Positions 3,521 to 25,647 of a stretch of DNA of 32,000 bases are shown piece by piece. The translations under genes and the position numbers were made by a program. Below the pieces are notes generated by a model that was not told the DNA's origin, made no database searches, and saw only the letters and a list, made by a program, of their open reading frames with translations. Every line of letters begins with the position of its first letter. The first letter of the stretch is position 1. The DNA comes from Clostridia bacterium. GTDB lineage: Bacteria > Bacillota > Clostridia > Oscillospirales > Acutalibacteraceae. The stretch covers positions 4,006 through 36,005 of the forward strand of contig JAFQRY010000023.1 of the NCBI GenBank assembly GCA_017409845.1. The letters run 5' to 3'.

Positions 3521-3568
3521 GAAATCGGATATTATGCGTAATAACGCACAATGCGTGAGGTGGCAGGT

Positions 3569-4813
3569 ATGAAAACAGATATGTTAACCGTTCAGCAAAC
3601 GGCAGAAAAGTGGAATATGTCGGTCAGGGGTGTACAAAATCTTTGCAAGCTCGGCAAAATAACGGGCGCAGTACGCTTCGGAGCGAGCTGGATGATTCCC
3701 GCCGATGCACAAAGACCTGCCGACAAAAGACGCAAAGAAGTAAAAGAAAATGAAGCGGAGCCCCGTCCTCTAATCCGTAAAAGCCCTTTTCTTGATATGA
3801 CCGATTTATATAATACTCCCGGAACTGCGGATGAATGCATAGAGGCTCTTTCTTTTCATCCCGAAGCGCAAGCGCTTTTTGCCGCTGAAATCGCATACAG
3901 CCGTGGTGAAATAGACAAGGTTTATGACTATGCAAACTACTTTCTTGAAAATCACAGCGGATTTTATGCCGTTGTTTCGGGCGGCATGCTGCTTGCTCTT
4001 TGTGCAATGTGGAAGGGCGATTTGCAGATGTGGCATAAGGCGAAAAACCATCTTTACGAAGCACCCTGCAAGGATGATACAGACCGTGATATTGTCACGC
4101 TTTCCGTTGCCGCAACGGACAGTGCAATCCGTGAAACAAGGGATTTTCCGGATTGGTTTAAACGGGGTTGTTTTAATAATCTGCCGCACGATGCACACCC
4201 TGCCGCAAGAGTATATTATGTAAAACATCTTTTGGTTAATGCACAAGAGCTTGCACTCGGAAACATTAAATTCGATGACATAAACGGTTTGGGTCTTATG
4301 AAAACCTTGCCCTACATAATGGAGCCTATGATTACGCAGATGGTTACGGATAAAATTGTTATTGCCGAAATATATCTTCGCCTGCTTTGCGGAATTGCTT
4401 ACCATCAATCCGGCGACGACAAAAGAGCTGCATTACATATTGATAAAGCCATCGCACTTGCTCTGCCCGATAAGCTTTACGGACCTCTTGTTGAGCATCG
4501 CAGACAGCTTGGTTTGTTTCTTGACGAAAGGCTTGCATTGGCAGATGCTGAGGCTCTCAAAAAAGTCAAAGAGCTTCACAAACAGCTTCACATAGGCTGG
4601 ACAAAGCTTCATAACGCCGTGCTCAAAAACAATGTTTCCGCATCGCTTACGGTGCGTGAGCGTGAGATTGCCCGCCTTGCGGCGTTCGGTCTTTCAAATG
4701 CGGAAATTGCAAAACAGCTTTCGCTTTCCGCACACACGGTAAATGCGCTCATTATTCAGGCGAAGAATAAGACCGGTGCAAAAAACCGCCTTGATTTGGG
4801 AGCATACATCTGA
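3569..4813 (+). CDS. transcriptional regulator: N-terminal MerR/excisionase-type HTH, helical (TPR-like) middle, C-terminal LuxR/FixJ-type HTH
   Basis: ATG 3569 follows GAGGTGG. N-terminus TAEKWNMSVRGVQNLCKLGKITGAV. C-terminus LTVREREIARLAAFGLSNAEIAKQLSLSAHTVNALIIQAKNKTGAKNR is a classic LuxR-type HTH. Confidence 0.8.
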   Translation: MKTDMLTVQQTAEKWNMSVRGVQNLCKLGKITGAVRFGASWMIPADAQRPADKRRKEVKENEAEPRPLIRKSPFLDMTDLYNTPGTADECIEALSFHPEAQALFAAEIAYSRGEIDKVYDYANYFLENHSGFYAVVSGGMLLALCAMWKGDLQMWHKAKNHLYEAPCKDDTDRDIVTLSVAATDSAIRETRDFPDWFKRGCFNNLPHDAHPAARVYYVKHLLVNAQELALGNIKFDDINGLGLMKTLPYIMEPMITQMVTDKIVIAEIYLRLLCGIAYHQSGDDKRAALHIDKAIALALPDKLYGPLVEHRRQLGLFLDERLALADAEALKKVKELHKQLHIGWTKLHNAVLKNNVSASLTVREREIARLAAFGLSNAEIAKQLSLSAHTVNALIIQAKNKTGAKNRLDLGAYI

Positions 4814-5307: not shown

Positions 5308-8300
5308 ATGAAAACATCATTGTTCAAAAAGCTTATCGCAATAACCCTTTCATTAACTCTCATTATGTCCTGCATGATGATTGCCGCACCGCACGTTCAT
5401 GCGGCAGACAGCATTGAGTTTATAACACGTGACGGAAAAAGAGTTGGTATAAAACAAATTACCATTGACGGCAAAACCTATTATGACATCAACGGCGGCG
5501 AGTCAACGATTGACCCGTCGGAAATATCTCCCATTGAGCTCTACAAAAAGCTGGTTGTTGCCGAACATAACGGCACCTCTCTTGCAAGAGCGTGGGCTAA
5601 CATAGCAAGCCTTATTTTTGAAAGTGCGGGCAATGAGTTCGGATATAACAACAATTTAGGTTATTCTTCAAATTATGACGAGCATTATACTAATGACGGT
5701 AACAGCAGCATAGATATAAACGTTGTGGATGCCCTTTCAAAAGAGAATTCCTGGAGTTCGGGTTATGCAAAATCCACCGGATGGGCAACAACAACAACAC
5801 TTAAAGCCGTTCAGGACAGCATGGTGAACGAAATTTGTTCCGCTCTTGATCGCTCAGGCCAGAACGGCGGTGTTTCCAGAGGCGCATGTATAGAATACTG
5901 TACGGGAAGTTCGGACGGTTTTCCTCTTCTCAACAATTCGGATAGCAGAACTGTTCTTTATAATATTGCCACAACCACAGATTACAGCAGCGGTTCAAAC
6001 AAAGCTGCATTTTCATCATTCGGTCTTGTGCTCTATGATTTTGAACTTATTCCTCTTGCGGATGACGATCTTGCGTTCATCACCGCGGCAGAAGGATATG
6101 AAAGCCTTGATGCTGCTGAAGCAGACAATGCACCAGGTGTAAAATATAACAGCACCAACGGAACACCCAACACAAGTTTTATCAGCAACCCCTCCGCTTC
6201 GGACACAACCGTTTCGGCTGCTTACAGCGAAACATCTTCAACAACGGTTTCAAACTACATGGAGTCATCTGAAACATACACATTCGGTCAAAGCACCGAG
6301 GTTTCAACTGAGTTCGGAGTTTCCTTCCCCCTTGTTGCAGATGCAAAAATGAGCGTTTCTATCGGCTTCTCTGCTGAACAGGCAATTTCAACTGCTTACG
6401 GCACGGAAGAGTCACTCACAAAAGAAACAACCACCGAAACTGTTGCAGAGGTTAATCTTCCTGCACATACACAAATAGGCATCAGCCAGCAGTCTGGTCA
6501 GACAGAGGTTGAGCTTGATTATGATTGCCCTGTTTACTTTAATTATAAAGTTGCCATTTTCGGTATGAACGGCGAATTTTATGCAGACAGCGTAGCAACA
6601 GAATCCTGGAGTACAGCAGGCTATGATCAGGGCGGTATATGCATAGGCTTCGGCACCGACACAAGCACCGGCGGCATTTCGGCCATTGACAATCTCTATA
6701 ACCGCGCAATCAAATTTAAGGATATGGACGGCTTTGAAGAGTCATACGGCAACTGCGACGGATACTATGAGAAACACGATGACGGCAATGCCTCGAAACG
6801 TTTCAAAGCAATTTCCTGGAACGATATTATTGATTCAACGCAAAATAACGGTCTTGACCTTACAGGCAAGGAAAATGTTTTTTATCTCAGAAACACTCTT
6901 CCTCTTTCCGCATCGGGCGGAACAATGTCATTCGTATCAACCAGCATGAACACCGATATTACCGGCATCGTTCCCCTCTACAATCTTGACTTTGTCCAGC
7001 TTGAGGGCGACGGAGTTTACAGTATTGCTCCCGGCGGCACGGTTGACTTCGGCAAAATTGCAACAGCAGGCTTTAATAAGCACAATGTTCCCTTCTACGG
7101 CTACATCAGCGATGGCGGCGAATGGGTTCTTTGCAATGCAGACGGAACGCAGACAGACTCCGTTGACGGCGGCTCACTTGATGATGTTTCAAACTATCAG
7201 GTATTCACCGGCACAAAGCCCGGCACCTACTATGCAAAATTCCTTATCGACGAAACGCTTTATGACAAGGTAGATGCTGAAGGCAAAATCAAGAATTCCA
7301 ACCTTTCATCAACTCCTATGGTCAGAATCAACGTAACCGAAACGGGTCACGACCATATCTGTGCAGAAGGTCCCTGGCAAACAACAGTTGCTCCCACTTG
7401 CACCGCAGAAGGTGAGCAGCACGCGAACTGCGTAACCTGCGGCAGAGTAATGTATACACAGCCGGTCGCAAAGCTCGACCATGTTCCCGTAACAATCACA
7501 ACTCCCGCCACCTGCACAAGTGAAGGCAGCATTAAAAATATTTGCGGCGTTTGCCTCGGTCTTATATCCTCCGAAACAACCGAAAAGCTTGAGCATGACG
7601 AAGGTGTATGGAAGATTGATTTTGAGGCAACGGCAGACCATCACGGTCAGATGAGCCGTTACTGCACAATGTGTGATACCGCACTTGAAAGCAGGGAATT
7701 TGACCTTCATACCCATCAGTTCGGATATGAAAGCATACTGCGTGAACCAACCTGCGTTGCTAACGGCGAAAAAGGACTGTTCTGCTCAATATGCAACGTA
7801 ATGTATGCAACAGAGCAGATTGAAAAGAGTGGTCACGGTGCAATCACAAGTATCATCGGCAAGGAAGCTGATTGTACACACGACGGCGAATCGCATCTGT
7901 ACTGCACAGATTGCGGAGAGCTTGTAGGCTCAAACACAATTCCTGCTCACGGTCATACAGCAGGTGCATGGGAAACCGTGATAGAGGCATCGTGCGATGT
8001 TAACGGTGAAAAGCATCAGAACTGCTCAATCTGCGGTGTGCTTCTCAACACAGATATTATTGAAGCACACGGTCATGCAGCGGCATGGATAACCGTTAAA
8101 GAAGCGGATTGTGAAACAACCGGCAGAGAAGAAAATGTCTGCACAATCTGTGATGCTGTTCTTGAAACAAGAGAAATCGCAAGAACAGAGCATATTCCCG
8201 GCAAATGGGAAATCACAAAGGATTCATCCTGCACACAGTCAGGTCTTATGCAGCAGACCTGTGCAATCTGCGGCGCACTAATAGGAGAACCCGTTGTTAT

Positions 8301-8970
8301 TGATGCACATGACCACGATAACGGAGCTTGGAGAACAGTTCTCGAAGCAACCTGCACAACAGATGGCGAAAGAATTAAGGAATGCACAATCTGTAGGGGC
8401 ACTATTGAATCGGAAGTTATTCCCGCACTCGGTCACGACGACGGAGTTTGGACAACAGCACTTGAAGCAAGCTGCGAAACTCAAGGCGAAAGACACAAGA
8501 ACTGCACACGCTGCGGTCAGCTTATCGAAAGCGAGAGAATTGATGCTCTCGGTCACACTCCCGGACCCGAAATGACCTGCACAACAGATCAGGTTTGCCT
8601 CGTTTGCGAAGAGATTCTCGTTCCTGCGGACGGTAAGAGCCACACCTGGACAGAATGGGAAACCTATAAGGAAGCTAAGTTCTTTACCGAAGAGCAGCAG
8701 AGAAGAGTATGCACCTCCTGCGACCTTGAAGAATACAGATTTGTTAAGGGTACATCAAAATGCCACAAGTATTTCCCGCATTGCGACGGCAGCGGCGAAG
8801 ACTGCTGGGCATGCAACACCTTGAGCAACACAAACGGCTTCTTCCGTAACCTTGGCAGATTCATCGTTTGGTTCTTCACTGAGAATATAGTTTCGATCAT
8901 TCTTTTCCCGTTCGCACACGGACATTTCCACGAGCATATCAACCTCGACGAAATATTCGGCTCGAAATAA
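5308..8970 (+). CDS. 1220-aa secreted/anchored protein: signal peptide, Ser/Thr-rich beta-rich N-terminal half, about 12 Cys-rich repeats, C-terminal hydrophobic segment
   Basis: AAGGAGG RBS. Signal peptide ending in the AAPHVHAAD region. Long uninterrupted ORF with coherent repeat structure. C-terminal FIVWFFTENIVSIILFPF hydrophobic stretch. Confidence 0.85.
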   Translation: MKTSLFKKLIAITLSLTLIMSCMMIAAPHVHAADSIEFITRDGKRVGIKQITIDGKTYYDINGGESTIDPSEISPIELYKKLVVAEHNGTSLARAWANIASLIFESAGNEFGYNNNLGYSSNYDEHYTNDGNSSIDINVVDALSKENSWSSGYAKSTGWATTTTLKAVQDSMVNEICSALDRSGQNGGVSRGACIEYCTGSSDGFPLLNNSDSRTVLYNIATTTDYSSGSNKAAFSSFGLVLYDFELIPLADDDLAFITAAEGYESLDAAEADNAPGVKYNSTNGTPNTSFISNPSASDTTVSAAYSETSSTTVSNYMESSETYTFGQSTEVSTEFGVSFPLVADAKMSVSIGFSAEQAISTAYGTEESLTKETTTETVAEVNLPAHTQIGISQQSGQTEVELDYDCPVYFNYKVAIFGMNGEFYADSVATESWSTAGYDQGGICIGFGTDTSTGGISAIDNLYNRAIKFKDMDGFEESYGNCDGYYEKHDDGNASKRFKAISWNDIIDSTQNNGLDLTGKENVFYLRNTLPLSASGGTMSFVSTSMNTDITGIVPLYNLDFVQLEGDGVYSIAPGGTVDFGKIATAGFNKHNVPFYGYISDGGEWVLCNADGTQTDSVDGGSLDDVSNYQVFTGTKPGTYYAKFLIDETLYDKVDAEGKIKNSNLSSTPMVRINVTETGHDHICAEGPWQTTVAPTCTAEGEQHANCVTCGRVMYTQPVAKLDHVPVTITTPATCTSEGSIKNICGVCLGLISSETTEKLEHDEGVWKIDFEATADHHGQMSRYCTMCDTALESREFDLHTHQFGYESILREPTCVANGEKGLFCSICNVMYATEQIEKSGHGAITSIIGKEADCTHDGESHLYCTDCGELVGSNTIPAHGHTAGAWETVIEASCDVNGEKHQNCSICGVLLNTDIIEAHGHAAAWITVKEADCETTGREENVCTICDAVLETREIARTEHIPGKWEITKDSSCTQSGLMQQTCAICGALIGEPVVIDAHDHDNGAWRTVLEATCTTDGERIKECTICRGTIESEVIPALGHDDGVWTTALEASCETQGERHKNCTRCGQLIESERIDALGHTPGPEMTCTTDQVCLVCEEILVPADGKSHTWTEWETYKEAKFFTEEQQRRVCTSCDLEEYRFVKGTSKCHKYFPHCDGSGEDCWACNTLSNTNGFFRNLGRFIVWFFTENIVSIILFPFAHGHFHEHINLDEIFGSK
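7344..8750 (+). repeat. intragenic array of about 12 diverged ~40-aa Cys-rich modules (consensus H-x-x-G-x-W-x6-C-x3-G-x5-C-x2-C-G-x12-H)
   Basis: Examples are GHTAGAWETVIEASCDVNGEKHQNCSICGVLLNTDIIEAHGH, DNGAWRTVLEATCTTDGERIKECTICRGTIESEVIPALGH and DDGVWTTALEASCETQGERHKNCTRCGQLIESERIDALGH. The repeats are visible at protein level; the DNA is diverged. Confidence 0.8.
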
Positions 8971-11405: not shown

Positions 11406-12656
11406 TTAAAACGATTTGATAAGTTCAACCGTTCCTCTTATCCATTTTATCGCTCCGTTCAGACGGTAGCCTTTGAAACCTGATTCAACGAGAATTTCAT
11501 TGACTTCTTCGTCCGTAATATCAAGATTTATGAGCTTTGTGAAATCGACACCCTCTTGGGCAATGTCGCAAATGTAATCATAATAAGTGCCTGAGTATCC
11601 GAAATTTGTTGCATACATTTCGATGTTCTCAACAGCATTCTCAACGGTTTCTTCTGTATCTTCATAGAAAAGGCTGCGTCCGTTATCGTAAAGCGGATAG
11701 AAGCTTTCACCTTCGGATGTCACTTTGACCGCCATGTTTGAGAGATGTCTGTCATCCTGCCTTGTTATGAAATCAAGCAGAATCATACGGATAAAATCAT
11801 CCTTATATTGAGGTCTGACAGCAAGCAGGTTTTCATATTCGTTATCGGAACGAGCACCGTCAAAAAGTCTGCGGAAGTGTACGATATATTCATTTGAGAA
11901 ATCATAAAGAAATTCCGAAAAAATTGTGTTTTTATCGTGGAGATAAACGGGACAGCAAGTCACACCGAGCTTCTCTGCGAGTTTATAAACAGCGATTTCA
12001 GATTCAACATCGGTCACAAGAGGACTGATTCGCTGCTTATAAATGCCGTATTTACCGTCCATAACACCGTATCGTTTGATGTTGTAGCCTTCAGGAGTGT
12101 CGACGCTGTCGCCGACAAGGTCGATTTTCTGCAGAAAGACAGATTCAAAAACCTCTGTCATTATCTCGTCGATAGTTTCATCCACGTTGTGAGCAATCCA
12201 GAGCAAATCCTTGGGATGAATGCCTCGTGTAACCTTGGCAATCCTCAAAACATCGTATGCAGAAAGTCCGCATCTGAACAAGATTTTCTCAATATCACGT
12301 CTGTCGCGGTTTACAACTCGCTCAGAAAGAAAGCCGACAAACTGCTCGTGAGTCCAGTTGTTCTGACCGTGAGTGTATAGTTTTACAACATCGTTGTATT
12401 CGGGACTGATGAAATGAACGTTATAGGCAGTGTCGATAAGACCAATAATATCGTTACCCCATTTAAGATAAAACTCTGACTGACCGACGGGATTTTTCAT
12501 TCTTCCGTCAGTCGGTTTTTTTGCGTCAACGGGGATTCTGTAGGTCTTACCCACAAGCACGGCACCCTCGATTTTACCTTCTTTACAAAGGGTGCGGACA
12601 CGTCTGTCGCTGATATTCCATTTTTCTGCAGCTTTGGCAGTAGTCATAAAGTCCAT
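11406..12656 (-). CDS. HipA-family kinase-like protein with a fused N-terminal HTH (HipH/YjjJ-like architecture)
   Basis: GGAGG RBS. N-terminal HTH AAEKWNISDRRVRTLCKEGKIEGAV. The C-terminal region has the HipA_C catalytic-loop-like ITRQDDRHLSNMAV, followed by YPLYDNGRSL (compare the D-x-H-x-x-N and the (A/P)-x-YD motifs of HipA). Confidence 0.65.
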   Translation of the reverse strand: MDFMTTAKAAEKWNISDRRVRTLCKEGKIEGAVLVGKTYRIPVDAKKPTDGRMKNPVGQSEFYLKWGNDIIGLIDTAYNVHFISPEYNDVVKLYTHGQNNWTHEQFVGFLSERVVNRDRRDIEKILFRCGLSAYDVLRIAKVTRGIHPKDLLWIAHNVDETIDEIMTEVFESVFLQKIDLVGDSVDTPEGYNIKRYGVMDGKYGIYKQRISPLVTDVESEIAVYKLAEKLGVTCCPVYLHDKNTIFSEFLYDFSNEYIVHFRRLFDGARSDNEYENLLAVRPQYKDDFIRMILLDFITRQDDRHLSNMAVKVTSEGESFYPLYDNGRSLFYEDTEETVENAVENIEMYATNFGYSGTYYDYICDIAQEGVDFTKLINLDITDEEVNEILVESGFKGYRLNGAIKWIRGTVELIKSF

Positions 12657-15532: not shown

Positions 15533-18500
15533 TTAAGCCGCTGCATTCGCATTTATTTGGTCAATAATTCTTTTTATGCCAAGCCATACGGAAACATCAG
15601 TGAAAATATCAACAATGCTGCCTTGGTCGGAGAACGGTGTTTCTTTAAGCACAGAAAGATCTTTCATCATACCGTTGCGAACGATATACTCAACAATCTG
15701 ATTGACGAAATAAATCTGTCTGCTGTCAAGACTTGAACTGTTGAGATATTCAGCAAAAGCTTCTTTTGCGGCATTCATATCAAGTCCGACTATACCTCTG
15801 ACAAATTCGCCGAGAGGAACAGAGCCATAGTTTGCTTCGTAATCCTCTTTTGAACCTACTTCGCTCCAGAGGATTTCTTCGAGAGCCTTCACGTCGTCTG
15901 CATTGAGGGGAACATTGCTCTTCAGCTTCGCAATAACCTCGTTATCCTGATGCTGACGGATATAAAACTCTGCCTTTGCTTTGTAATCCTGCAAATCGTC
16001 ATTCTCAAGCTCGGATTCGTTCCAATCTATTGATATGATTTCATCATCAAATGTTGTTGTGTAGGTCGGGTGTGAAACAATAATATATTTAATCAAATCA
16101 CGCAGGTTTTCTCTGATATTTTCAAACTCATTGATGCCTGCGGTTTCAACGTAATCCGTATGCAGAATCTTATTTATCAGATCGTGCTGTGACATGATTT
16201 CGGGAATATTTGCTGTATTGGCAAGTGCATTAACCTTTTTAACAAGATCATTTCTTGCTTTGGAATACTTTTTGCCAACAAGATATGCGAGCTCGATTCC
16301 GTAGATAAGAGCATCGAATCGCAAAGCCTTCGCATCGTCTTCGTCGGGAATAACAAGCGGTGCGATTTCTTCTTTTATTTCGAGAGTATTCTCATATGTA
16401 AGCACATTGTAGTTATCGGGATTTGAGTAGAAATCAACATAACGGAGATGCTGTTTAACCGAAAAACTCTCTCTGTTAAGCTCCCTGACTTTGCGGACCA
16501 TATCTTCAACAAGCAGTTTTCTGAATGCGATAAGCTCGTTTGTCTGGTAATCCATATCCTGCAATTTATAGGCAATTTGTGCTTTGAGGTTGAATATTGC
16601 ACTCTGCAATGCAACGGCACTTGTTGTCTTGCCTTTGCCGCCCATTCTGAAGAATTCGAAGTTTCCGCAGAAATCGAAGATATAGAATATCTTTTTATCT
16701 TCGCCGTCGATGAGACTCGGGCAAAGACGGGTGCCTCTGCCGACCATCTGCCAGAACTTCGCTTTACTCATAACCTTCTTGAAGAAAACGAGATTCAGCA
16801 CTTCGGGCACGTCAATACCCGTATCAAGCATATCAACGGAAATTGCAATCTGTGGCAGTTTTTTTGGGTCGCTGAAATCATCAATTGCACTCTGTGCATA
16901 GTTGGTGTAATTATCAATCACCATTGCGTAGCCGTTGAGGTGAGGATATTCCTTGTTGAATATTTCAAGGATTTTTTCGGCGTGCTGATGGCTTTTTGCA
17001 AAAATGATTGACTTGCCGATTTTATTGCCGTAATCAATTTTCAGTCCGTGAGTCATAAGAACGTTGAGAACTTCACGGATTGTATCTTCGTTGAACACCC
17101 ATTCATTGAGTGCTGATGAATTGATTTTATCAGGCAATTCGCCGTTTTCATTTTCAAACGTGTTTTCGTATTCCTCTTTGTCTTCATCGGAAAGCTCGTC
17201 ATAAACGATGCCTTCTTCGATGAATTTGAGCTTTGTTTCAACGGACATAAAATCAACCAGATATCCGTCGGCAACAGCCTGTGCAAGCTCATAGGCATAG
17301 GTGGGAATACCGCTTTGCAGATTGAAAATTTCATATGTATTCTTTTCAATTTCGTCTTTCGGTGTAGCGGTAAGACCCACAAGAGGAGCATCGAAATAGT
17401 TGAAAATATCTTTGTATTTATTATAAACTGAACGGTGTGCTTCGTCGCAGATGATAAGGTCAAAATGTCCGCAGGTGAAAAGCTTGCCTTCATCGTCTTT
17501 AATATTATCAATGCAGTTGAACATCGTCTGATATGTTGAGAAAACGCAATGAGCATTGTAGTTTTCTTTATCGGTGCAAAGATTCGTGACCGAGAAATTC
17601 GGAAGAAGATTCACAAACGCACGCTTTGCCTGTGTGACAAGCGAAGTTCTGTCCGCAAGGAAAAGAACGTTCTTGACCCAGCCGTGATTGAGAAGCACTT
17701 TTGTGAGGGCAATAACCGTTCTCGTCTTACCCGAACCCGTAGCCATAACGAGCAGAGCCTTGCGGCGATTTTTGCCGTCAAAGCTGTCGCATACAGCACG
17801 GATTGCGCCTTCCTGATAATATCTGCCTGCGATTGCAGGGTCAACGGTGATATTCTTAAGGCTTGTCCTCATTGAACGCAGATTAAACATCTTTTCAAGG
17901 TCACGCTTTGAATAGATAGCGGCAACCTTTCTTTCGGGATACTGACCGTCAACGATTCTTGTATCAAAGCCGTTTGTGAGGAAGATTGCAGGGCGTCTGC
18001 CGTATTTCTTTTCGATTATATCGGCATAGAGTTTTGCCTGCTGTCTGCCGACGGCAACATCCTTGCAGGTGCGTTTTGCCTCAATAACAGCAAGGGGTTT
18101 GCCGTCATCGCCGTAAAGCACGTAATCGGCATAGCCTACGCCTGCGTTGTTGGGCATACCTTCAAGCTCAACCTCATTGAGCCAGTTTTTGCCTTCAATC
18201 CAGCCTGCATCAACGAGCATTGCATCAATATATATCTTGCGTGTCTGATACTCTGTGAGATCAAGAGGCTTTGGAACATAATTCTGCTGCTGTTCCTCAC
18301 GGCGGGCGGTGAGCTGTTCTTTGAGAGCTTTGTTTTCGGCAAGAAGCTGTTCAAAATTGATTTCAACCGCATTATCAATGAGAGTTTCGGTGTGTTTCTG
18401 AATAAGAGAAGCATCGAAGGTTCTTTCTTCATATTCGGCACCGTAGCAGCAGGCAACGAAATCCATAAAGATAAAAAGGTTTTCAAGGCAAAGCTCCGCC

Positions 18501-18817
18501 TGCCCGGCAGAAATCTTTTTGCCCTGATGGGCGGCGTTGTTGCCAAGCTTTCTGATAAGCTCCATCCTGCGCCATACGTCGTCGCTGACGATATCACGGA
18601 ACTCATCGGTATTCATTAAATTGACGAGGCTGTCCTGCCACGGGAGAACAAGCTCCTTATCGACGGAATACATCCATTTGACTGCAAACTCCATGGCACG
18701 GCGGCAGTTGATAACGGCAGCCGCCGCATCGATATGTAAAATCTTTTCCGCCGAAACCGCAACAGACGAAAAACTGTCAAACTGCGGATCTTGCGTAAGA
18801 AAATCAAAGTTGGTCAT
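15533..18817 (-). CDS. hsdR: type I restriction enzyme R subunit (HsdR) with an N-terminal DUF4145/HEPN-like module and an EcoEI-type C-terminal domain
   Basis: AGGTGA RBS. Nuclease/helicase motifs include MATGSGKT (Walker A) and the DEAH box (ICDEAHRS). N-terminal ...IRKLGNNAAHQ... module. 1094 aa. Confidence 0.95.
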   Translation of the reverse strand: MTNFDFLTQDPQFDSFSSVAVSAEKILHIDAAAAVINCRRAMEFAVKWMYSVDKELVLPWQDSLVNLMNTDEFRDIVSDDVWRRMELIRKLGNNAAHQGKKISAGQAELCLENLFIFMDFVACCYGAEYEERTFDASLIQKHTETLIDNAVEINFEQLLAENKALKEQLTARREEQQQNYVPKPLDLTEYQTRKIYIDAMLVDAGWIEGKNWLNEVELEGMPNNAGVGYADYVLYGDDGKPLAVIEAKRTCKDVAVGRQQAKLYADIIEKKYGRRPAIFLTNGFDTRIVDGQYPERKVAAIYSKRDLEKMFNLRSMRTSLKNITVDPAIAGRYYQEGAIRAVCDSFDGKNRRKALLVMATGSGKTRTVIALTKVLLNHGWVKNVLFLADRTSLVTQAKRAFVNLLPNFSVTNLCTDKENYNAHCVFSTYQTMFNCIDNIKDDEGKLFTCGHFDLIICDEAHRSVYNKYKDIFNYFDAPLVGLTATPKDEIEKNTYEIFNLQSGIPTYAYELAQAVADGYLVDFMSVETKLKFIEEGIVYDELSDEDKEEYENTFENENGELPDKINSSALNEWVFNEDTIREVLNVLMTHGLKIDYGNKIGKSIIFAKSHQHAEKILEIFNKEYPHLNGYAMVIDNYTNYAQSAIDDFSDPKKLPQIAISVDMLDTGIDVPEVLNLVFFKKVMSKAKFWQMVGRGTRLCPSLIDGEDKKIFYIFDFCGNFEFFRMGGKGKTTSAVALQSAIFNLKAQIAYKLQDMDYQTNELIAFRKLLVEDMVRKVRELNRESFSVKQHLRYVDFYSNPDNYNVLTYENTLEIKEEIAPLVIPDEDDAKALRFDALIYGIELAYLVGKKYSKARNDLVKKVNALANTANIPEIMSQHDLINKILHTDYVETAGINEFENIRENLRDLIKYIIVSHPTYTTTFDDEIISIDWNESELENDDLQDYKAKAEFYIRQHQDNEVIAKLKSNVPLNADDVKALEEILWSEVGSKEDYEANYGSVPLGEFVRGIVGLDMNAAKEAFAEYLNSSSLDSRQIYFVNQIVEYIVRNGMMKDLSVLKETPFSDQGSIVDIFTDVSVWLGIKRIIDQINANAAA

Positions 18818-18843: not shown

Positions 18844-19578
18844 TTAGAAAATTGTCTTTATTATTCTTTCTGTTCCCGAAATCAATTCTTCGACTTCCTC
18901 TTTTGTTGGTTCTCTATCTTTGTTGTGATCACACAGATTTCTTAAGTCGCCGAGTCTTTGGATTCTTCTCCACTCTATTGTATCATAAACATTGTCTTTA
19001 AGAACTTCGTTATAGTCTGCTATTGTGGGGCTTTTCTTTTTTGTCGTTATATGATGGTTTTGGCATACAATTGAAAAGTGTTTTTCGATCAATACTCCGC
19101 AAACAGCACCTGCTGCACGAAAAAATCCTCTTTTAAGCAAATGTTTTGCCGAGTCAATTTCGGAGTCAAAAATATCTGCTTGTAAAAGGGTTTGAATATT
19201 GTATATTTTACTATCAAATGTATCTAAACATCCACATAGAATTTTATGCTGGCTATATATACAAGACAAAGCGTTAGGGGGGCCATAGGTTCTCCTACTG
19301 TTTCCGATTCCTCTCAAAGCATCCGAAACGGTATAGCTGGAAACATCCAACACTTTTCTCCTGTCATTTTTATAGAATAAAACAAAATCATTTAATCTTT
19401 CTGGTAACAGTGTTTTAACAACTGCGATAGCTTTTGAATACCAAACTTCATAGTTTAAGTAGAAATAACCATAGTCTGAACACTCACCATTTTTATCAGA
19501 TTCAATTGCTTTACATAATTTATACCCTTCGTCTGTCAATTCTTTTAATTCTTTTTTCATGTCTTCATACTTGTTCAT
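18844..19578 (-). CDS. hypothetical protein with a C-terminal HEPN-like domain (R-N-x3-H motif), embedded between hsdS and hsdR
   Basis: ATG 19578 is preceded by GAGGTGA, which overlaps the end of hsdS. The C-terminus reads ...RRIQRLGDLRNLCDHNKDREPTKEEVEELISGTERIIKTIF, with Rx4H at nt 18925-18942. The stop lies 26 nt before the hsdR start. Confidence 0.6.
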   Translation of the reverse strand: MNKYEDMKKELKELTDEGYKLCKAIESDKNGECSDYGYFYLNYEVWYSKAIAVVKTLLPERLNDFVLFYKNDRRKVLDVSSYTVSDALRGIGNSRRTYGPPNALSCIYSQHKILCGCLDTFDSKIYNIQTLLQADIFDSEIDSAKHLLKRGFFRAAGAVCGVLIEKHFSIVCQNHHITTKKKSPTIADYNEVLKDNVYDTIEWRRIQRLGDLRNLCDHNKDREPTKEEVEELISGTERIIKTIF

Positions 19579-19588
19579 ATTTATCACC

Positions 19589-20689
19589 TCATCCGAAATA
19601 TTGTTGCATTAAGCTGTCAAACAGGGTTTGTGATTCGTCAAGAGCTTTCTGCACAGCAAATTTTGATTTATCGACTTGTTCAACAAAGGCTGCAAATTGG
19701 TTTTGAAGGTCGATTGGCGGGATAGGCATATCTATTTTCAACAAATCTGCTTTTGTTAAACTTGGTATTGTAACAGCTTTATTTAATATCTCAAAATCAA
19801 AAAGAATGCAGTATAAATACAAATAGTCAACTAACAACACATCTGGTTTTGGTTCTAAGCCGAAAGCGGTATCGACATTCCAATATTTTTCTCGCATTAA
19901 AATAGGCTTATTAATGTTTCCTTTTCTTCCTATTATAACAGAATTCTCTTTTGTAATATAATCATCTGCATATCCCATTACTCCACCACTACCACAAATA
20001 GGATACTGTCCGTTGGGATTTTCAACATTCTTTTGATTTCTACCGTTTTTTACAGACAAAACATCTGCCCAAGTATAAGTTTCCCAAGATTGAGTGTTTG
20101 TGATAACGTCGCCAAACATCTCGACAAATCGGGCTTTAACGAGTTCATCAAGTTTGGCAAGTTGTTGTTTTCTCATTTCAATCAAGGTGTCTATTTTTTC
20201 TAAAACACCTACAATCTTGAGTTGCTCATTAAGTGGAACAGAGGGAAAAGATAGCTCCTTCAATGCTGAAACTGTAAAACTTGCTTGATTAACCGATTTT
20301 TTTGTTATATTGGGAATCTGTCTTAAAAATGACTGTGACGAAAAGTAATAAAATGCGTATTTGCTTATAACACAATCTGTATTCGGCCTCAACAAAAGAA
20401 GATTCATTCCATGAATAACTTCTTCCCTATCATTTTTTTGATAAAGAGCTGTTTTAGCAAGATGTTTTTCGCTGTTTATATGCGACATCAAAATATCTCC
20501 GTCTTGCAAAACATAATCACGATATTTCGATAAATCATTTATGCCTGCATAGCCCATTTTGTTACGGTCAACAGTTCGATTCGATATTGTTTCTATTCTT
20601 GTTATGGGATAACCTGAATCATCTAATCCCTGTTTGATATTCGCACCATTTCTTATAAGTGCAAAAAAGTCACCTAATCTCGCCATCAT
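19589..20689 (-). CDS. hsdS: type I R-M specificity subunit (HsdS), two target-recognition domains
   Basis: Bipartite architecture with a conserved central helix (LNEQLKIVGVLEKIDTLIEMRKQQLAKLDELVKARF) and a C-terminal helix (LQNQFAAFVEQVDKSKFAVQKALDESQTLFDSLMQQYF). Its ATG overlaps the upstream stop (ATGA). Confidence 0.9.
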   Translation of the reverse strand: MMARLGDFFALIRNGANIKQGLDDSGYPITRIETISNRTVDRNKMGYAGINDLSKYRDYVLQDGDILMSHINSEKHLAKTALYQKNDREEVIHGMNLLLLRPNTDCVISKYAFYYFSSQSFLRQIPNITKKSVNQASFTVSALKELSFPSVPLNEQLKIVGVLEKIDTLIEMRKQQLAKLDELVKARFVEMFGDVITNTQSWETYTWADVLSVKNGRNQKNVENPNGQYPICGSGGVMGYADDYITKENSVIIGRKGNINKPILMREKYWNVDTAFGLEPKPDVLLVDYLYLYCILFDFEILNKAVTIPSLTKADLLKIDMPIPPIDLQNQFAAFVEQVDKSKFAVQKALDESQTLFDSLMQQYFG

Positions 20690-21147
20690 CCTACCTCTTT
20701 AAACAATGCTATCAGTGCAACGATTAATGCAAACATTGACATAGTGTTCGAAAAAACTGTTGCAACATAATTTTTATCTTGTTCTCCATCCAAATCCTTA
20801 GCGGCCAAAAAAGTAAAAGCTGCCAATAAAAGAAGAAAAAATGCCCCTATTATGCTTATAGCTATCTCAATTAATGGCTTGTATTCTGCAGAATTAAATT
20901 CAAAAGTGAGTTTTATTCCTACAGCAAAAAGCCCTAAAGATGTCAGCAAGCAAAGAATAGAAAAACCATAAAGCAGACAAGTCGCAATGAACTTCATCCA
21001 TTCTCTCGAACTGCTGTATTCAGCATTTTCATCATATTGTGTTTTTTTGTTTGCATTAACAATAGCATGAGCAAGCTTGTCATAATCTATTTCAATATTT
21101 ACAGAATCAATATTATTAACAACAGTATTTCGCTTTTTCTTTGCCAT
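20686..21147 (-). CDS. 153-aa predicted integral membrane protein (3-4 TM segments), no family recognised, embedded between hsdM and hsdS
   Basis: Its start overlaps the hsdM stop (TAATG at 21149-21145) and its stop overlaps the hsdS start (ATGA at 20689-20686). Hydrophobic segments: FIATCLLYGFSILCLLTSLGLFAVGI, LIEIAISIIGAFFLLLLAAFTFLAA, MSMFALIVALIALF. Confidence 0.7.
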   Translation of the reverse strand: MAKKKRNTVVNNIDSVNIEIDYDKLAHAIVNANKKTQYDENAEYSSSREWMKFIATCLLYGFSILCLLTSLGLFAVGIKLTFEFNSAEYKPLIEIAISIIGAFFLLLLAAFTFLAAKDLDGEQDKNYVATVFSNTMSMFALIVALIALFKEVG

Positions 21148-22643
21148 TAAAGCATTTCCTCCAGCTCTTTAAGTCCATTGGTGATTTCGTCTTCAAGTGC
21201 AAAAAGTTCCGCCATAATCTCGCTTGTGGGCGGATATTCAACGGCAACGTATTCCGTTTTCTTGTATTTGTTGATTGAAAGGTCATAGTCATTATCAATA
21301 ATTTCCTGCTTGGGCACAAAGAAGCTCTGCTGAGTGCGTTCTCTTTCCGCTTCGCCGTCAGGGTTTCTGAATCGGGCAATAATATCGGGGATATCGTTTT
21401 CGGCAATCTCCGAGCGCTTATCGTCAAGGCTGAAGCCGTCGGCTTTCATATCGTAAAACCATACCTTGTCCGTGCCGCCGTGCTCCGTTTTGGTGAATAT
21501 CATTATTGCCGTTGATACACCCGCATAGGGCTTGAATACGCCCGAAGGCATCGAAACAATCGCTTCAAGGCGGTTGTTTTCTATTATCTCCTTGCGGATT
21601 GCCTTGTGTGCAGTCGATGAGCCGAAAAGTACGCCGTCGGGTACGATACAGGCGCATCTGCCGCCTATCTTAAGCATACGCAGGAACAATGCAAGGAACA
21701 AAAGCTCCGTTTTCTTCGTTTTGCAAACCTTGAGCAAATCAGCCGATACAGTATCATAATCAAGGCTGCCCTTGAAAGGCGGATTGGCAAGGATAAGCGA
21801 ATATTTGCCCTTATCCGCATTCTGGTCGGAAAGGCTGTCACGGTATTCGATATAGGGATTGTCTATGCCGTGGGTCATCATATTCATCGCACCGATACGA
21901 AGCATCGTTCTGTCCATATCGTAGCCGAAAAACATATGATTCATATAGTGGTCTTTTGCAATGCGGTCAAAGAAGATTTCTTCTCTGCGATGCTCTTTGA
22001 GATAATCTCCTGCCGCAACAAGGAAGCCCGACGTACCGCAGGCAGGGTCGCAGATAACCTCGTCTGCCTTGGGGTCCATCATTTCAACCATCATTTTAAT
22101 GATGTGTCGGGGTGTTCTGAACTGTCCGTTAAGACCCGACTGTGCAATCTTTGAAAGAAGATATTCGTATGTATCGCCCTTGGTGTCGCTTCCTTCGGCA
22201 ACAGCCATAAGGTCATAAATCTCGTCAAGTGCAGTAACTACCTTGTCCAGCAGAAGGGGAGTAGGCAACTTGAATATTGCATCGCCCATGTATTTTGAAT
22301 ATGCGCTGTTTTTATCCGAATGAAGATTCTTGATAAACGGGAACACCATTTCCTGCATAACGGAATACATTCTTTCTGCAGGGAAATCGTGGAATACCGA
22401 CCATTTAAGCTGATTGCCGTCTACCTTGCGGTCTCCGATTTCAACTTCACCCGAAAAAATGCTTTCAAAAGGCAAGCCGAGCATTGCACTCTCCTTGGCG
22501 TTGCGGTTATCAGCATCGTCAAGGTCACGGATAAACATAAGGTAGGTTATCTGCTCGATAACATCGAGGGGATTAACAAGTCCGCCTGCCGCAAAAATAT
22601 CCCAAAGGGAATCAATTTTATTTTTAAGTTCGCCTGTAATCAT
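21147..22643 (-). CDS. hsdM: type I R-M N6-adenine DNA methyltransferase subunit (HsdM)
   Basis: N-terminal HsdM_N-like ELKNKIDSLWDIF. AdoMet motif ICDPACGTSGF. Catalytic NPPF (LANPPFKG). The start was placed at ATG 22643 (GGGAGAAAG RBS), 2 nt after the fic stop; the track ORF begins at an upstream TTG. Confidence 0.95.
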   Translation of the reverse strand: MITGELKNKIDSLWDIFAAGGLVNPLDVIEQITYLMFIRDLDDADNRNAKESAMLGLPFESIFSGEVEIGDRKVDGNQLKWSVFHDFPAERMYSVMQEMVFPFIKNLHSDKNSAYSKYMGDAIFKLPTPLLLDKVVTALDEIYDLMAVAEGSDTKGDTYEYLLSKIAQSGLNGQFRTPRHIIKMMVEMMDPKADEVICDPACGTSGFLVAAGDYLKEHRREEIFFDRIAKDHYMNHMFFGYDMDRTMLRIGAMNMMTHGIDNPYIEYRDSLSDQNADKGKYSLILANPPFKGSLDYDTVSADLLKVCKTKKTELLFLALFLRMLKIGGRCACIVPDGVLFGSSTAHKAIRKEIIENNRLEAIVSMPSGVFKPYAGVSTAIMIFTKTEHGGTDKVWFYDMKADGFSLDDKRSEIAENDIPDIIARFRNPDGEAERERTQQSFFVPKQEIIDNDYDLSINKYKKTEYVAVEYPPTSEIMAELFALEDEITNGLKELEEML

Positions 22644-22645
22644 AA

Positions 22646-23722
22646 TCAATCTTTCTCCCTGTTCCAAGTATATGATGTGTATCTGCCGCCGCCGATTTTG
22701 ATGATATCACCGTTTTTAACCAGTTCGTTAAGCGTGCGCTGAATTGTTACCTGACTGATATCGGGGCATTGCTCGGCAATTTCGGATTTTGTAACCTTGC
22801 CGAGTGTATCTTTGATGATGTTTCTGATACGGTCGGGTTTTGAGCCTGCGGTAAGAAGCTTCACCCTCGATGAGAATTCACGGTAAGCCGCCGCAATAAC
22901 TCCGAGCATATAGCGAACAAACGGACCGTAGTCGTTTTTATTCTCGTGCCAACCAAAAGAACTTGACTGCAAAGCTTCGTAATAAGTCTCTTTTGTCTGC
23001 TCAATAATGCGTTCAATACTGATATATTTACCCACAATATAACCTGCACGGTAAAGAAGCAAAAGAGTGAGCAAACGGCTCATTCTGCCGTTGCCGTCAT
23101 TGTGCGGATGAATGCAGAGATAATCAAGAACAAACATAGGAATAAGAATAAGCGGATCCGCATCGCCTTTTGCGAGTTCAGTATCAAACGCTGTGCAGAG
23201 GTTTTCGATTGACTGCTGTGTTTCCCAAGCAGGAACAGGCTGAAAACGCACAAAACGGTTGCCGCTTTCATCTTCTTCTGCAATAACGTTGTCGCTATTT
23301 TTATAGTTACCACCAATAGATTTACCGCTGAATTTATATAAATCACGGTGAAGCTGAAGAATAAACGAAGGTCTGACGGGAATATAGTCATAGTTTTCGT
23401 GAATGGTTGCAAGCACGTCACGGTAACCGGCAATTTCCTGCTCGCTTCTGTTCTGGGGCAGAGCCTTATTCATAACAATCTTTTTGATTCGCTCATCAGA
23501 GGTATAAATACCTTCAATCTTATTTGATGATTCAGCACTCTGGATTTTTGCTATATCAAGCAAGCTTGTTAAAACATCTGCTTTTGCTTCGATAAACAAA
23601 GCCTGCTCACCTTTGTATTCATGGATTGTTGTCAGCAGCGAAACAATATCGGGTTCCAGCAACAACTTCCAGTTTTTGAAATCGTAATTTCTCATTGAGT
23701 TAAACTCACTTTCTGTATACAT
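22646..23722 (-). CDS. fic: Fic/DOC family protein with an N-terminal inhibitory-helix motif and a C-terminal winged-HTH
   Basis: Fic motif HPHNDGNGRMSR (compare HxFx(D/E)GNGRxxR). Inhibitory motif (S/T)xxxE(G/N) present as SNKIEG. C-terminal SEIAEQCPDISQVTIQRTLNELVKNGDI wHTH. Confidence 0.9.
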   Translation of the reverse strand: MYTESEFNSMRNYDFKNWKLLLEPDIVSLLTTIHEYKGEQALFIEAKADVLTSLLDIAKIQSAESSNKIEGIYTSDERIKKIVMNKALPQNRSEQEIAGYRDVLATIHENYDYIPVRPSFILQLHRDLYKFSGKSIGGNYKNSDNVIAEEDESGNRFVRFQPVPAWETQQSIENLCTAFDTELAKGDADPLILIPMFVLDYLCIHPHNDGNGRMSRLLTLLLLYRAGYIVGKYISIERIIEQTKETYYEALQSSSFGWHENKNDYGPFVRYMLGVIAAAYREFSSRVKLLTAGSKPDRIRNIIKDTLGKVTKSEIAEQCPDISQVTIQRTLNELVKNGDIIKIGGGRYTSYTWNREKD

Positions 23723-23827: not shown

Positions 23828-23869
23828 CCCTTCCGGGATGGTTAAAATGACCGTTTCGGAAGGGATTTT
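23828..23869. terminator. hairpin insulating the fic-hsd operon from the xis-int module
   Basis: CCCTTCCG (23828-23835) / CGGAAGGG (23857-23864), flanked by AAAAA upstream and ATTTT downstream (bidirectional appearance). Confidence 0.5.
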
Positions 23870-24426: not shown

Positions 24427-25647
24427 ATGAATAAGTCAAATGTTAATCTTCCCGATTTTAAAATTCCCAATGTTGATGTTCGCGGCGATGCTTACCGTAT
24501 CAGAGTTTCTGACGGCTACGATTCAAATGGCAAACAGAAAATGAGATACAAGACATGGCACCCCGAACCCGGAATGACCGAAAAGCAAATTAAAAATGAG
24601 CTTCTTTGACAGCGTGTTCTTTTTATGGAACAGGTCAAGAAGGGTATGGTTGTCAACAGAAAAATACGCTTTGAAGAGGCGTTCGATGAATGGATTGCTT
24701 TTGCAGGAGAAATGAATATTATTACTCATGCCTCTGCTAAAAGATATAAAACCTGCAGACCGCGTCTTGTTGAAGAGTTAGGGCATTACTATTTGTCTGA
24801 CCTCAGAAAAAAGGATATACAGGCATTTATCAAGAAGATAGGCACCGGCGACAAGAAGAATAAGGGTGCTTCTGAGAAATCTCAAAAAAACTATAAAACA
24901 GTTATATCCAACATTTATAAGTATGCCGTTGACAATGAATATGTTTTTGATAATCCCTGCAAAGATATTAAAATTGTCAAAAAAGAGACCAAACCCAGAC
25001 AGATATACTCGGTAGAAGAAGTTCAGACAATCCTCAATCTGATGGCAGACGAGCCCCTGAAATATTTTTTATTTCACATTTTGGCTTTTTTCTGTGGGTT
25101 CAGACGTGGAGAATTGCTCGGCATTGAATGGGGTGACATTTCGTTTGAAGAAAGAAAAATAAAAATCAGAAGAGCTTCTCTTTACGCAAACGATATCGGT
25201 ACATATACATCTACCCCCAAGACGGTCGGTTCAAGAAGAACGGTTGTTGTTTCGGGCGACGTTATTGATTTGCTGAAACGGTACAAAGCCGAACAGGATG
25301 AATACAAGAAGATGCTCGGCGATGCGTGGATTGACAATGACCGACTTTTCACTCAATGGAACGGTGCTCCGATGGGCACAAGCACTCCGCTTAATTGGTA
25401 CAGAGAGTTCTGCAAGAAGAACAATATAAGATATCTTTGCACTCACTGCTGCAGACATTTCAACATCTCGCTGATGATAAAAAATCACGTTGACGTAGTT
25501 TCAGTTTCAGCGGCGGCAGGTCATAAGGATATTACAACAACTCTTAATATCTATGCCGAAGAATTTGAAGAGGCAAACGCAGCAAGCGTAGAAACAGTTT
25601 CAAGCTGTATTTCAATTCCTTCCGTAACCAAAACAACAGAGGAATAA
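24427..25647 (+). pseudogene. int: tyrosine site-specific integrase interrupted by an in-frame TGA (24607-24609)
   Basis: The ORFs 24427-24609 (arm-type DNA-binding domain, VRGDAYRIRVSDGYDSNGKQKMRYKTW) and 24625-25647 (SAM-like plus catalytic domain, with R...H-x-x-R as HCCRH and the nucleophile Y of NIYAEE as candidate motifs) are in the same frame. They are separated only by TGA: ...KNELL*QRVLFMEQVKKG. Confidence 0.8.

Follow-up and report, generated by a model that had tools for sequence, protein, structure and literature searches.

In a 32,000-nucleotide stretch of a Clostridia bacterium genome (Acutalibacteraceae; assembly GCA_017409845.1, contig JAFQRY010000023.1), hereafter the window, a type I restriction-modification (R-M) operon carries between its hsdS and hsdR genes an open reading frame, ORF244 (18844..19578, minus strand), encoding a 244-residue protein with an N-terminal helical domain and a C-terminal HEPN domain. 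We propose, by analogy with characterized HEPN systems and with a probability of roughly 0.55, that ORF244 is an autonomous sensor and HEPN abortive-infection effector housed in a variable cassette of the R-M operon. Autonomous regulation is favored because the architecture and invariant residues persist in the ~75% of family members found without R-M, and because no antidote recurs across the family and none would fit in the window. A first-pass annotation made from the letters of the window had offered a PrrC-style reading, a latent RNase backing up restriction. The HEPN assignment, the lack of a nucleoside triphosphatase (NTPase) domain, the position in the prrC slot and the enrichment beside R-M genes all hold, but ORF244 does not belong to the PrrC/RloC family.

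The C-terminal domain (residues ~131 to 244; 18847..19188, minus strand) was delimited from Pfam, Foldseek and homologue scans. The AlphaFold2 (AF2) model of ORF244 is confident and all-helical (pLDDT 88.8, pTM 0.60), with helices in this domain at residues 131-149, 153-174, 200-217 and 226-242. The top specific Foldseek matches in the PDB are HEPN proteins, TM0613 (1o3u), AF0298 (2hsb), ST0689 (1wol), TT1696 (1ufb), the HepT toxins (5yep, 6m6u) and AbiV (9bj7). The better matches have probabilities of 0.9-1.0, with 0.98-1.0 for 1o3u, 2hsb, 1wol, 5yep and 1ufb, and target-normalized TM-scores of 0.55-0.69, and the HEPN matches cover only the C-terminal ~120 residues; the other PDB matches are generic helical proteins at low probability. 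Fold prediction, which the first-pass annotation had named as a check on its HEPN assignment, therefore gives a HEPN helical bundle for the C-terminal ~115 residues. Profile searches, also named there, point the same way. The sole Pfam match of ORF244 itself is a sub-threshold one to HEPN (PF05168, E = 0.0016, residues 140-242), and PADLOC (E <= 0.1) and NCBIfam scans gave no match, but when 62 relatives were compared with Pfam at E <= 1e-3, models of the HEPN clan (CL0291) alone were matched: PF05168 by 19, DUF4145 weakly by 14, HEPN_RiboL-PSP by 10, HEPN_Swt1 by five and HEPN_Apea by one, the best PF05168 match being at E = 4.5e-6. Because the 62 members match only HEPN-clan models and are split among several, this is a genuine HEPN domain, sited between existing families and without a model of its own.

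The domain carries the string R213-N-L-C-D-H218 (18925..18942, minus strand), a catalytic-type Rx4H HEPN motif with Asn after the Arg. We measured conservation first among 32 close homologues and then among 62 diverse ones, with identities down to ~20-25% and members from Bacillota, Bacteroidota, Pseudomonadota, Chloroflexota, cyanobacteria and the candidate phyla radiation. E140, G161, V162, E165, R213, N214 and H218 are invariant in the diverse set (62/62), so the signature described in the first-pass annotation, and the Arg and His whose conservation it had proposed to check, are both borne out. E165 (19084..19086, minus strand), within GVxIEKH of the second HEPN helix, is probably the equivalent of the second acidic residue known to be conserved in HEPN domains (PMC3710099), although its +4 position is not K or R and the match to the glutamate of Ex3[KR] is drawn from the Pfam alignment register alone. 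An Rx4H string by itself is not significant; this one carries weight because of the invariant residues, the confident HEPN bundle and the exclusively HEPN-clan Pfam matches. In PrrC, RloC and RNase L, mutagenesis has identified the R and H of the motif as catalytic residues (PMC3710099), and by analogy R213, N214 and H218 are likely to take part in catalysis. The motif is followed by an acidic helix segment, REPTKEEVEELISGTERII, at residues 222-240.

The gene itself is as the first-pass annotation placed it, a 244-residue frame between hsdS (19589..20689) and hsdR (15533..18817), both on the minus strand, with R-N-L-C-D-H at exactly the nucleotides given there. ORF244 starts at an ATG (19578-19576) and stops at a TAA (18846-18844). 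A mechanical list of open reading frames has a 247-residue version from a GTG at 19587, which lies inside the GAGGTG ribosome-binding site (19585..19590, minus strand) that overlaps the hsdS stop codon (TGA, 19591-19589). Since homologues begin at MNKYED, matching the ATG start, 244 residues is the correct length, and the R216 and H221 of the earlier numbering, which fit the longer version, are R213 and H218 here. Only 10 nucleotides separate the hsdS stop from the ATG, and hsdR begins 26 nucleotides past the ORF244 stop, leaving no space for a promoter, terminator or RNA antitoxin. No terminator-like site was found across hsdS, ORF244 and hsdR in the window, and the idea that ORF244 has its own promoter or RNA antitoxin there was dropped on both grounds. 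ORF244 is co-transcribed with the type I R-M operon, and its translation is probably coupled to that of hsdS.

The N-terminal domain (residues 1 to ~130; 19189..19578, minus strand) is all-helical and family-specific, and we propose it as the sensor or regulatory part of the protein. The AF2 model has helices at residues 2-25, 36-57, 59-69, 84-88 and 100-149, the last a helix of ~50 residues that joins the domain to the HEPN domain. In the homologue alignments, W46, F65, Y69 and Q110 are at least 90% conserved. The first-pass annotation had remarked that the N-terminal ~140 residues resemble nothing recognizable, and searches of the domain against Pfam, NCBIfam, PADLOC, PDB folds and predicted viral structures (BFVD) agree in finding no match; a profile search of ORF244 against PDB sequences returned a chance match alone (E = 0.79), and Foldseek against BFVD gave nothing significant. 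Its description of this part as rich in Cys and Tyr is right for composition (8.6% Tyr and five Cys in the first 140 residues), but conservation points to no metal-binding motif. C117 is the sole Cys of the domain that is invariant among the 32 close homologues, and a zinc finger or other metal site was rejected accordingly. Also rejected was an origin as a degenerate second HEPN domain by internal duplication, hhalign of the N-terminal against the C-terminal half giving a probability of 0.9%. A profile of the domain matches mainly full-length members of the ORF244 family and nothing longer than 261 residues, with no sign of domain swapping, and the notion of a modular sensor shared with other effectors was dropped. 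The domain has a fold class without a known match and may sense an infection trigger.

ORF244 belongs to a large, widely conserved and uncharacterized family whose members stand alone and have two domains. A search of 5.8 billion proteins gave 1228 homologues at E <= 1e-3; in a representative set clustered at 50% identity there are 2539 clusters at E <= 1e-3, 1178 at E <= 1e-10 and 500 at E <= 1e-30. Source names read "hypothetical protein" throughout. None of Pfam, NCBIfam and PADLOC has a model dedicated to the family. Members among the matches listed are all 160-306 residues long, so short that they cannot also hold a fused effector or NTPase domain. Distant relatives with only the HEPN domain, annotated as "HEPN domain-containing" or "DUF4145 domain-containing", occur on small Acinetobacter plasmids among RelE/ParE and BrnT/BrnA modules. 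A blastn search of the Trabulsiella homologue against complete Escherichia coli genomes gave no match.

We scanned the genomic neighborhoods of the family in one genome per species, obtaining 66 loci, of which 59 hold the full two-domain family, and took recurrence from clustering of the three neighbors on either side in those 59. The sole recurrent neighbors are HsdS (13 loci, directly upstream in 10), HsdR (10) and HsdM (8), and HsdS is the only one to recur at the -1 position. Against fewer than 0.1 expected by chance, hsdS lies directly upstream in 10 of the 55 loci with a called upstream gene; for a random gene, the chance of this arrangement is far below 1%. The R-M enrichment that the first-pass annotation had proposed to look for is thus strong directly downstream of hsdS. 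In eight of the 10 loci the gap after hsdS is only -1 to 14 nucleotides, and the downstream gene varies. The gene lies between hsdS and hsdR in L001, L003, L007, L013, L018, L021, L032, L051, L070 and L072. Altogether, type I linkage is seen in ~14 of the 59 species-level loci (24%, counting an HsdS fragment at the contig end of L004), and in ~75% the three genes on either side include no type I R-M.

The type I-linked members form a Clostridia clade, which includes the window, and a Bacteroidota clade, plus L051 from Dehalococcoidia. HsdR of the Clostridia clade is EcoAI/EcoEI-like with a DUF4145 module, whereas the Bacteroidota HsdR is ~27% identical and lacks it. The type I systems linked to the family span three phyla and no fewer than three lineages, an EcoAI-like type, a Bacteroidota type and a Dehalococcoidia system. 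DUF4145 is present in five of the nine HsdR neighbors of the family, so there is no strict co-occurrence. In the Bacteroidota loci, hsdR is followed by a gene for a YgjP-like metallopeptidase.

The family also keeps other company. Other neighbors include type IIG, type ISP and C5 methyltransferase genes, an SLFN-type helicase and PADLOC defense families; members also occur on an element with a relaxase and TnpV, and beside a serine recombinase and a DpnII R-M system. Klebsiella pneumoniae and Citrobacter freundii carry the gene as solitary cargo, at one end of a prophage or of a capsid-encoding, satellite-like element beside mug-rpoD. This enterobacterial gene lies at 8001-8780 in L076-L080, where the satellite-like element is small (integrase/AAA_25/capsid-protease) and the insertion adjoins rpoD, with mug (UDG) on one side and the phage genes on the other. 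A 48-residue open reading frame precedes the gene in some enterobacterial loci.

Within R-M operons, the family gene behaves as part of a movable unit. In the window, the genes for a 153-residue membrane protein, hsdS and ORF244 have GC contents of 33-34% and third-position GC contents of 25-29%, compared with GC contents of 45.8% for hsdM and 43.3% for hsdR. The contrast in composition was viewed in the window, L013, L003, L018 and L032; in L013, the family gene has 35% GC, and hsdM and hsdR have 62%. Between L002 and the window, the ORF244 copies are 66% identical, HsdM 54% and HsdR 37%. The low GC of the block and this contrast in identities suggest that hsdS plus cargo is an exchangeable, compositionally foreign cassette set between conserved hsdM and hsdR frames. 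The hsdS-hsdR gap of related operons also holds AbiH, AbiTii, Abi_alpha, SieB and unknown proteins, and co-travel in the cassette alone can explain the tight linkage of ORF244 to hsdS. These abortive-infection or exclusion genes lie at 10759-11868 in L001, 10770-11972 in L002, 7832-8899 in L072, 8677-9618 in L021, 5531-6331 in L012 and 10837-11367 in L003.

HEPN RNases are metal-independent and dimeric, with a composite active site (PMC3710099; PMC13017515). On that model, ORF244 would be a metal-independent endoribonuclease serving as an abortive-infection or toxin-type defense effector, two of its HEPN domains dimerizing into a composite active site. The N-terminal domain would hold the enzyme off in uninfected cells, and an infection cue that it senses would switch the enzyme on; cleavage of cellular and/or phage RNA would then stop translation in the infected cell. 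In the window, where it rides as cargo in the low-GC block that also holds the membrane protein gene and hsdS, on an integrase-bearing element, ORF244 would back up DNA restriction and the Fic toxin with a second layer aimed at RNA.

Several observations weigh against this proposal. The Foldseek E-values are weak (0.04-0.4) despite the high probabilities, and the PF05168 score of ORF244, 19 bits, falls short of the 22 set as gathering score. No sensor fold can be recognized in the N-terminal domain, which is never swapped onto other effectors, and a sensor role for it is therefore conjectural. Unrelated or housekeeping genes border many loci, meaning that a defense-island context is not universal, and a tblastn search of 50,697 phage genomes found no match to the family. 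Finally, the coupling to the 3' end of hsdS across different type I lineages, with gaps of -1 to 14 nucleotides in eight of 13 loci, could equally mean a physical partnership with R-M.

Such a partnership is the core of a second, more tentative reading, in which ORF244 is a guard of the PrrC or Ronin type. In the R-M-linked clades, the HEPN protein would be held by HsdM2S or HsdR2M2S and freed by a phage anti-restriction protein; Ocr and ArdA, which are DNA mimics, or a Stp-like peptide would disable or distort the R-M complex, and the RNase would abort the infection, an NTPase-less counterpart of PrrC in function. There are precedents, as EcoprrI holds PrrC, and HsdMS holds RonA of Ronin until ArdA or Ocr sets it free (bioRxiv 10.1101/2023.04.06.535777). 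ORF244 occupies the prrC slot between hsdS and hsdR (PMC3710099), the gaps after hsdS are short, and hsdS is the constant partner across the type I lineages as the downstream gene varies. We consider it doubtful that the R-M-linked clades hold a minimal, NTPase-less guard translationally coupled to HsdS and silenced by HsdS/HsdM or by a hetero-dimer with the HsdR DUF4145 module, and similarly doubtful that such a guard would travel as a swappable hsdS-plus-guard cassette whose RNase is released on anti-restriction attack. The wider distribution of the family tells against guarding as its general mechanism: about three quarters of the loci are without a type I system nearby, lone copies stand at prophage or satellite ends or beside housekeeping genes, and type I linkage is confined to two clades and one isolate. 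The R-M-free proteins keep the N-terminal domain and the invariant residues and must therefore be tolerable, and regulated, without R-M. Moreover, the linkage is explained at least as well if the gene travels with hsdS in a low-GC, recombining cassette shared with unrelated Abi genes.

We think it unlikely that ORF244 is instead an addiction toxin, a HEPN RNase whose unrecognized antidote (a small neighbor, the R-M proteins or Fic) would let it stabilize the mobile element or the hsdS cassette. The presence of HepT toxins of HEPN-MNT modules (5yep, 6m6u) among the closest folds is in keeping with this, as are the distant HEPN relatives among toxin-antitoxin modules on Acinetobacter plasmids, the probable position of the window operon on an integrase-bearing element and the 48-residue frame before some enterobacterial copies. 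Neighbor clustering in the 59 loci, though, found no recurrent antitoxin-like, MNT or other small partner, many copies are solitary, with unrelated genes on both sides, and the intergenic gaps in the window are too small to encode an antitoxin, be it a small protein or an RNA; with only HsdS, HsdR and HsdM recurring, a conserved antitoxin or MNT partner was dropped. Least probable of all is a non-defense role in RNA binding or processing, either timing hsdR expression in a new host through the hsd mRNA or acting as a silent HEPN scaffold, for although some HEPN domains such as MtlR are non-catalytic binders of RNA or ligands (PMC3710099) and ORF244 sits exactly at the hsdS/hsdR junction where delayed control of restriction would presumably act, the invariant R, N, H and E argue for catalysis, most members of the family lack an hsd operon that they could regulate, and the patchy, horizontally spread, low-GC distribution is typical of defense or toxin cargo.

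Compared with known systems, our proposed sensor-effector appears to work most like the single-gene sensor and HEPN effectors, and it sits in the PrrC slot. As a general idea this has been put forward before. A multi-pronged defense by HEPN genes embedded in R-M operons was proposed in 2013 by Anantharaman, Makarova, Burroughs, Koonin and Aravind, who linked at least 16 HEPN clades to R-M and described three-level neighborhoods with DOC/Fic and fusions of DUF4145 to EcoEI-like helicases (PMC3710099). The arrangement in the window is an instance of that published pattern, with a stand-alone Rx4-6H HEPN protein inside an hsdMSR operon that also has a Fic/DOC toxin and a DUF4145-HsdR fusion. What differs is that ORF244 scores above threshold for no named family and that its N-terminal domain is family-specific.

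Like PrrC of the E. coli prr locus (EcoprrI), ORF244 lies between hsdS and hsdR, carries at its C-terminus a nuclease domain of the HEPN superfamily that has an R...H motif, and could plausibly play a second-line role behind restriction. Unlike PrrC, it has only 244 residues and no ABC-ATPase or NTP-sensing domain; as the first-pass annotation had it, the protein is NTPase-less, no such domain being found in Pfam, NCBIfam or PADLOC and no P-loop (GxxxxGK[ST]) being present. The sequence match is at the superfamily level only, the host system is EcoAI/EcoEI-like where that of PrrC is type IC, and most ORF244 relatives have no R-M linkage. Membership in the PrrC/RloC family was rejected on the missing NTPase domain.

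RAZR is a single gene that encodes an N-terminal sensor and a HEPN effector, the N-terminal domain gating abortive infection (PMC13017515). ORF244 resembles RAZR (PD-T7-4) in being one small polypeptide with a non-catalytic N-terminal domain, a C-terminal HEPN domain and no antitoxin, and the way in which the N-terminal domain of RAZR can gate a HEPN dimer offers a model for ORF244. The two differ in that ORF244 lacks the Cys4 zinc ribbon, has an Rx4H rather than a DUF4145-type Rx7H motif and has no PADLOC match; RAZR membership was rejected on the ribbon (C117 being the sole conserved Cys) and the absent PADLOC match. With the type VII toxin-antitoxin system HepT-MntA, ORF244 shares one of its best folds (5yep and 6m6u, target-normalized TM-score 0.55-0.58) and its closest Pfam model, PF05168, but it has an extra N-terminal domain of 130 residues and no MNT partner in the 59 loci. 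Membership was rejected, no nucleotidyltransferase being found in the window operon or among the recurrent neighbors.

The window operon encodes two HEPN domains, that of ORF244 and an N-terminal DUF4145 module in HsdR (residues 22-113, E = 8.9e-15) containing IRKLGNNAAH, a motif of the Rx7H type. The first-pass annotation had called the two related. The module is indeed there, but the kinship is at the superfamily level only, and weak at that on sequence grounds. Aligned by hhalign, the ORF244 C-terminal domain and the HsdR DUF4145 alignment give E = 1.3e-3 and a probability of 18%, with N214 and H218 in register with DUF4145 and R213 aligned to a Gly, and ORF244 has no match to PF13643 (DUF4145) at E <= 0.1. 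Membership in DUF4145 was rejected on this probability and on the different motif spacing (Rx4H against Rx7H, R-x2-G-N-x3-H type). Ronin, the remaining comparison, is similar in the tight linkage of an Abi effector gene to hsdS and hsdM and in the guard concept. RonA, however, is a 61-residue membrane protein and Ronin has no hsdR, whereas ORF244 is soluble and lies in a full hsdMSR operon; the 153-residue membrane protein encoded in the window at 20686-21147 is a closer positional analogue of RonA than ORF244 is.

If our proposal is true, a large and phylogenetically broad family joins the single-gene HEPN abortive-infection effectors. HEPN RNases behind restriction are already established, which makes the gain incremental. 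The low-GC block of hsdS plus cargo shows type I operons carrying exchangeable second-line defenses, and the occurrence of one family both inside and outside R-M operons provides a natural test of functional coupling (guarding) versus co-transfer. Should guarding prove true, PrrC and Ronin would be joined by a third, independently evolved way of guarding type I restriction.

With its other genes, all on the minus strand, the operon is a composite defense operon of a SoFic-like gene and a type I R-M system. Its first gene encodes a SoFic-like Fic/DOC protein (22646..23722; Fic PF02661, E = 3.1e-12; PADLOC SoFic, E = 1.9e-36) with a C-terminal winged helix-turn-helix, and overlaps the start of hsdM by 22 nucleotides. 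The type I methyltransferase gene hsdM (21147..22667) matches N6_Mtase (E = 6.9e-67), HsdM_N and PADLOC MTase_I (E = 4.8e-182). Between hsdM and hsdS lies the gene for the 153-residue membrane protein (20686..21147; three hydrophobic segments, GC 32.7%), which overlaps both neighbors by 1-4 nucleotides and has no family match. A 186-residue homologue occupies the same slot in L007 and L072 only, and the protein is a second cargo gene of the hsdS cassette. The specificity gene hsdS, directly upstream of ORF244, matches Methylase_S (E = 3e-37; GC 34.4%), and the EcoAI/EcoEI-like hsdR matches ResIII, EcoEI_R_C, HSDR_N and DUF4145, as well as PADLOC REase_I (E = 3.6e-164). The order Fic-hsdM-hsdS-HEPN gene-hsdR is also found in L001, L003, L012 and L070/L071.

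Upstream of the Fic gene, in intergenic sequence, is a strong hairpin with a 17-bp stem and a T-run (23828-23864), and the two best promoter-like sites of the operon (23925-23898 and 23766-23738, minus strand) adjoin it. A tyrosine integrase gene lies just past the operon (24625-25647, plus strand), and on the opposite side are genes for an excisionase-like HTH_17 protein and a LuxR-type protein (11406-12656, minus strand; 3551-4813, plus strand). With these genes on its two sides, the R-M operon is probably part of a mobile element that has integrated; no tRNA gene occurs in the window. Farther along, a 1220-residue protein is encoded at 5308-8970 (plus strand), its sole Pfam match being a weak one to an aerolysin toxin domain (E = 4.7e-6, residues 297-417).

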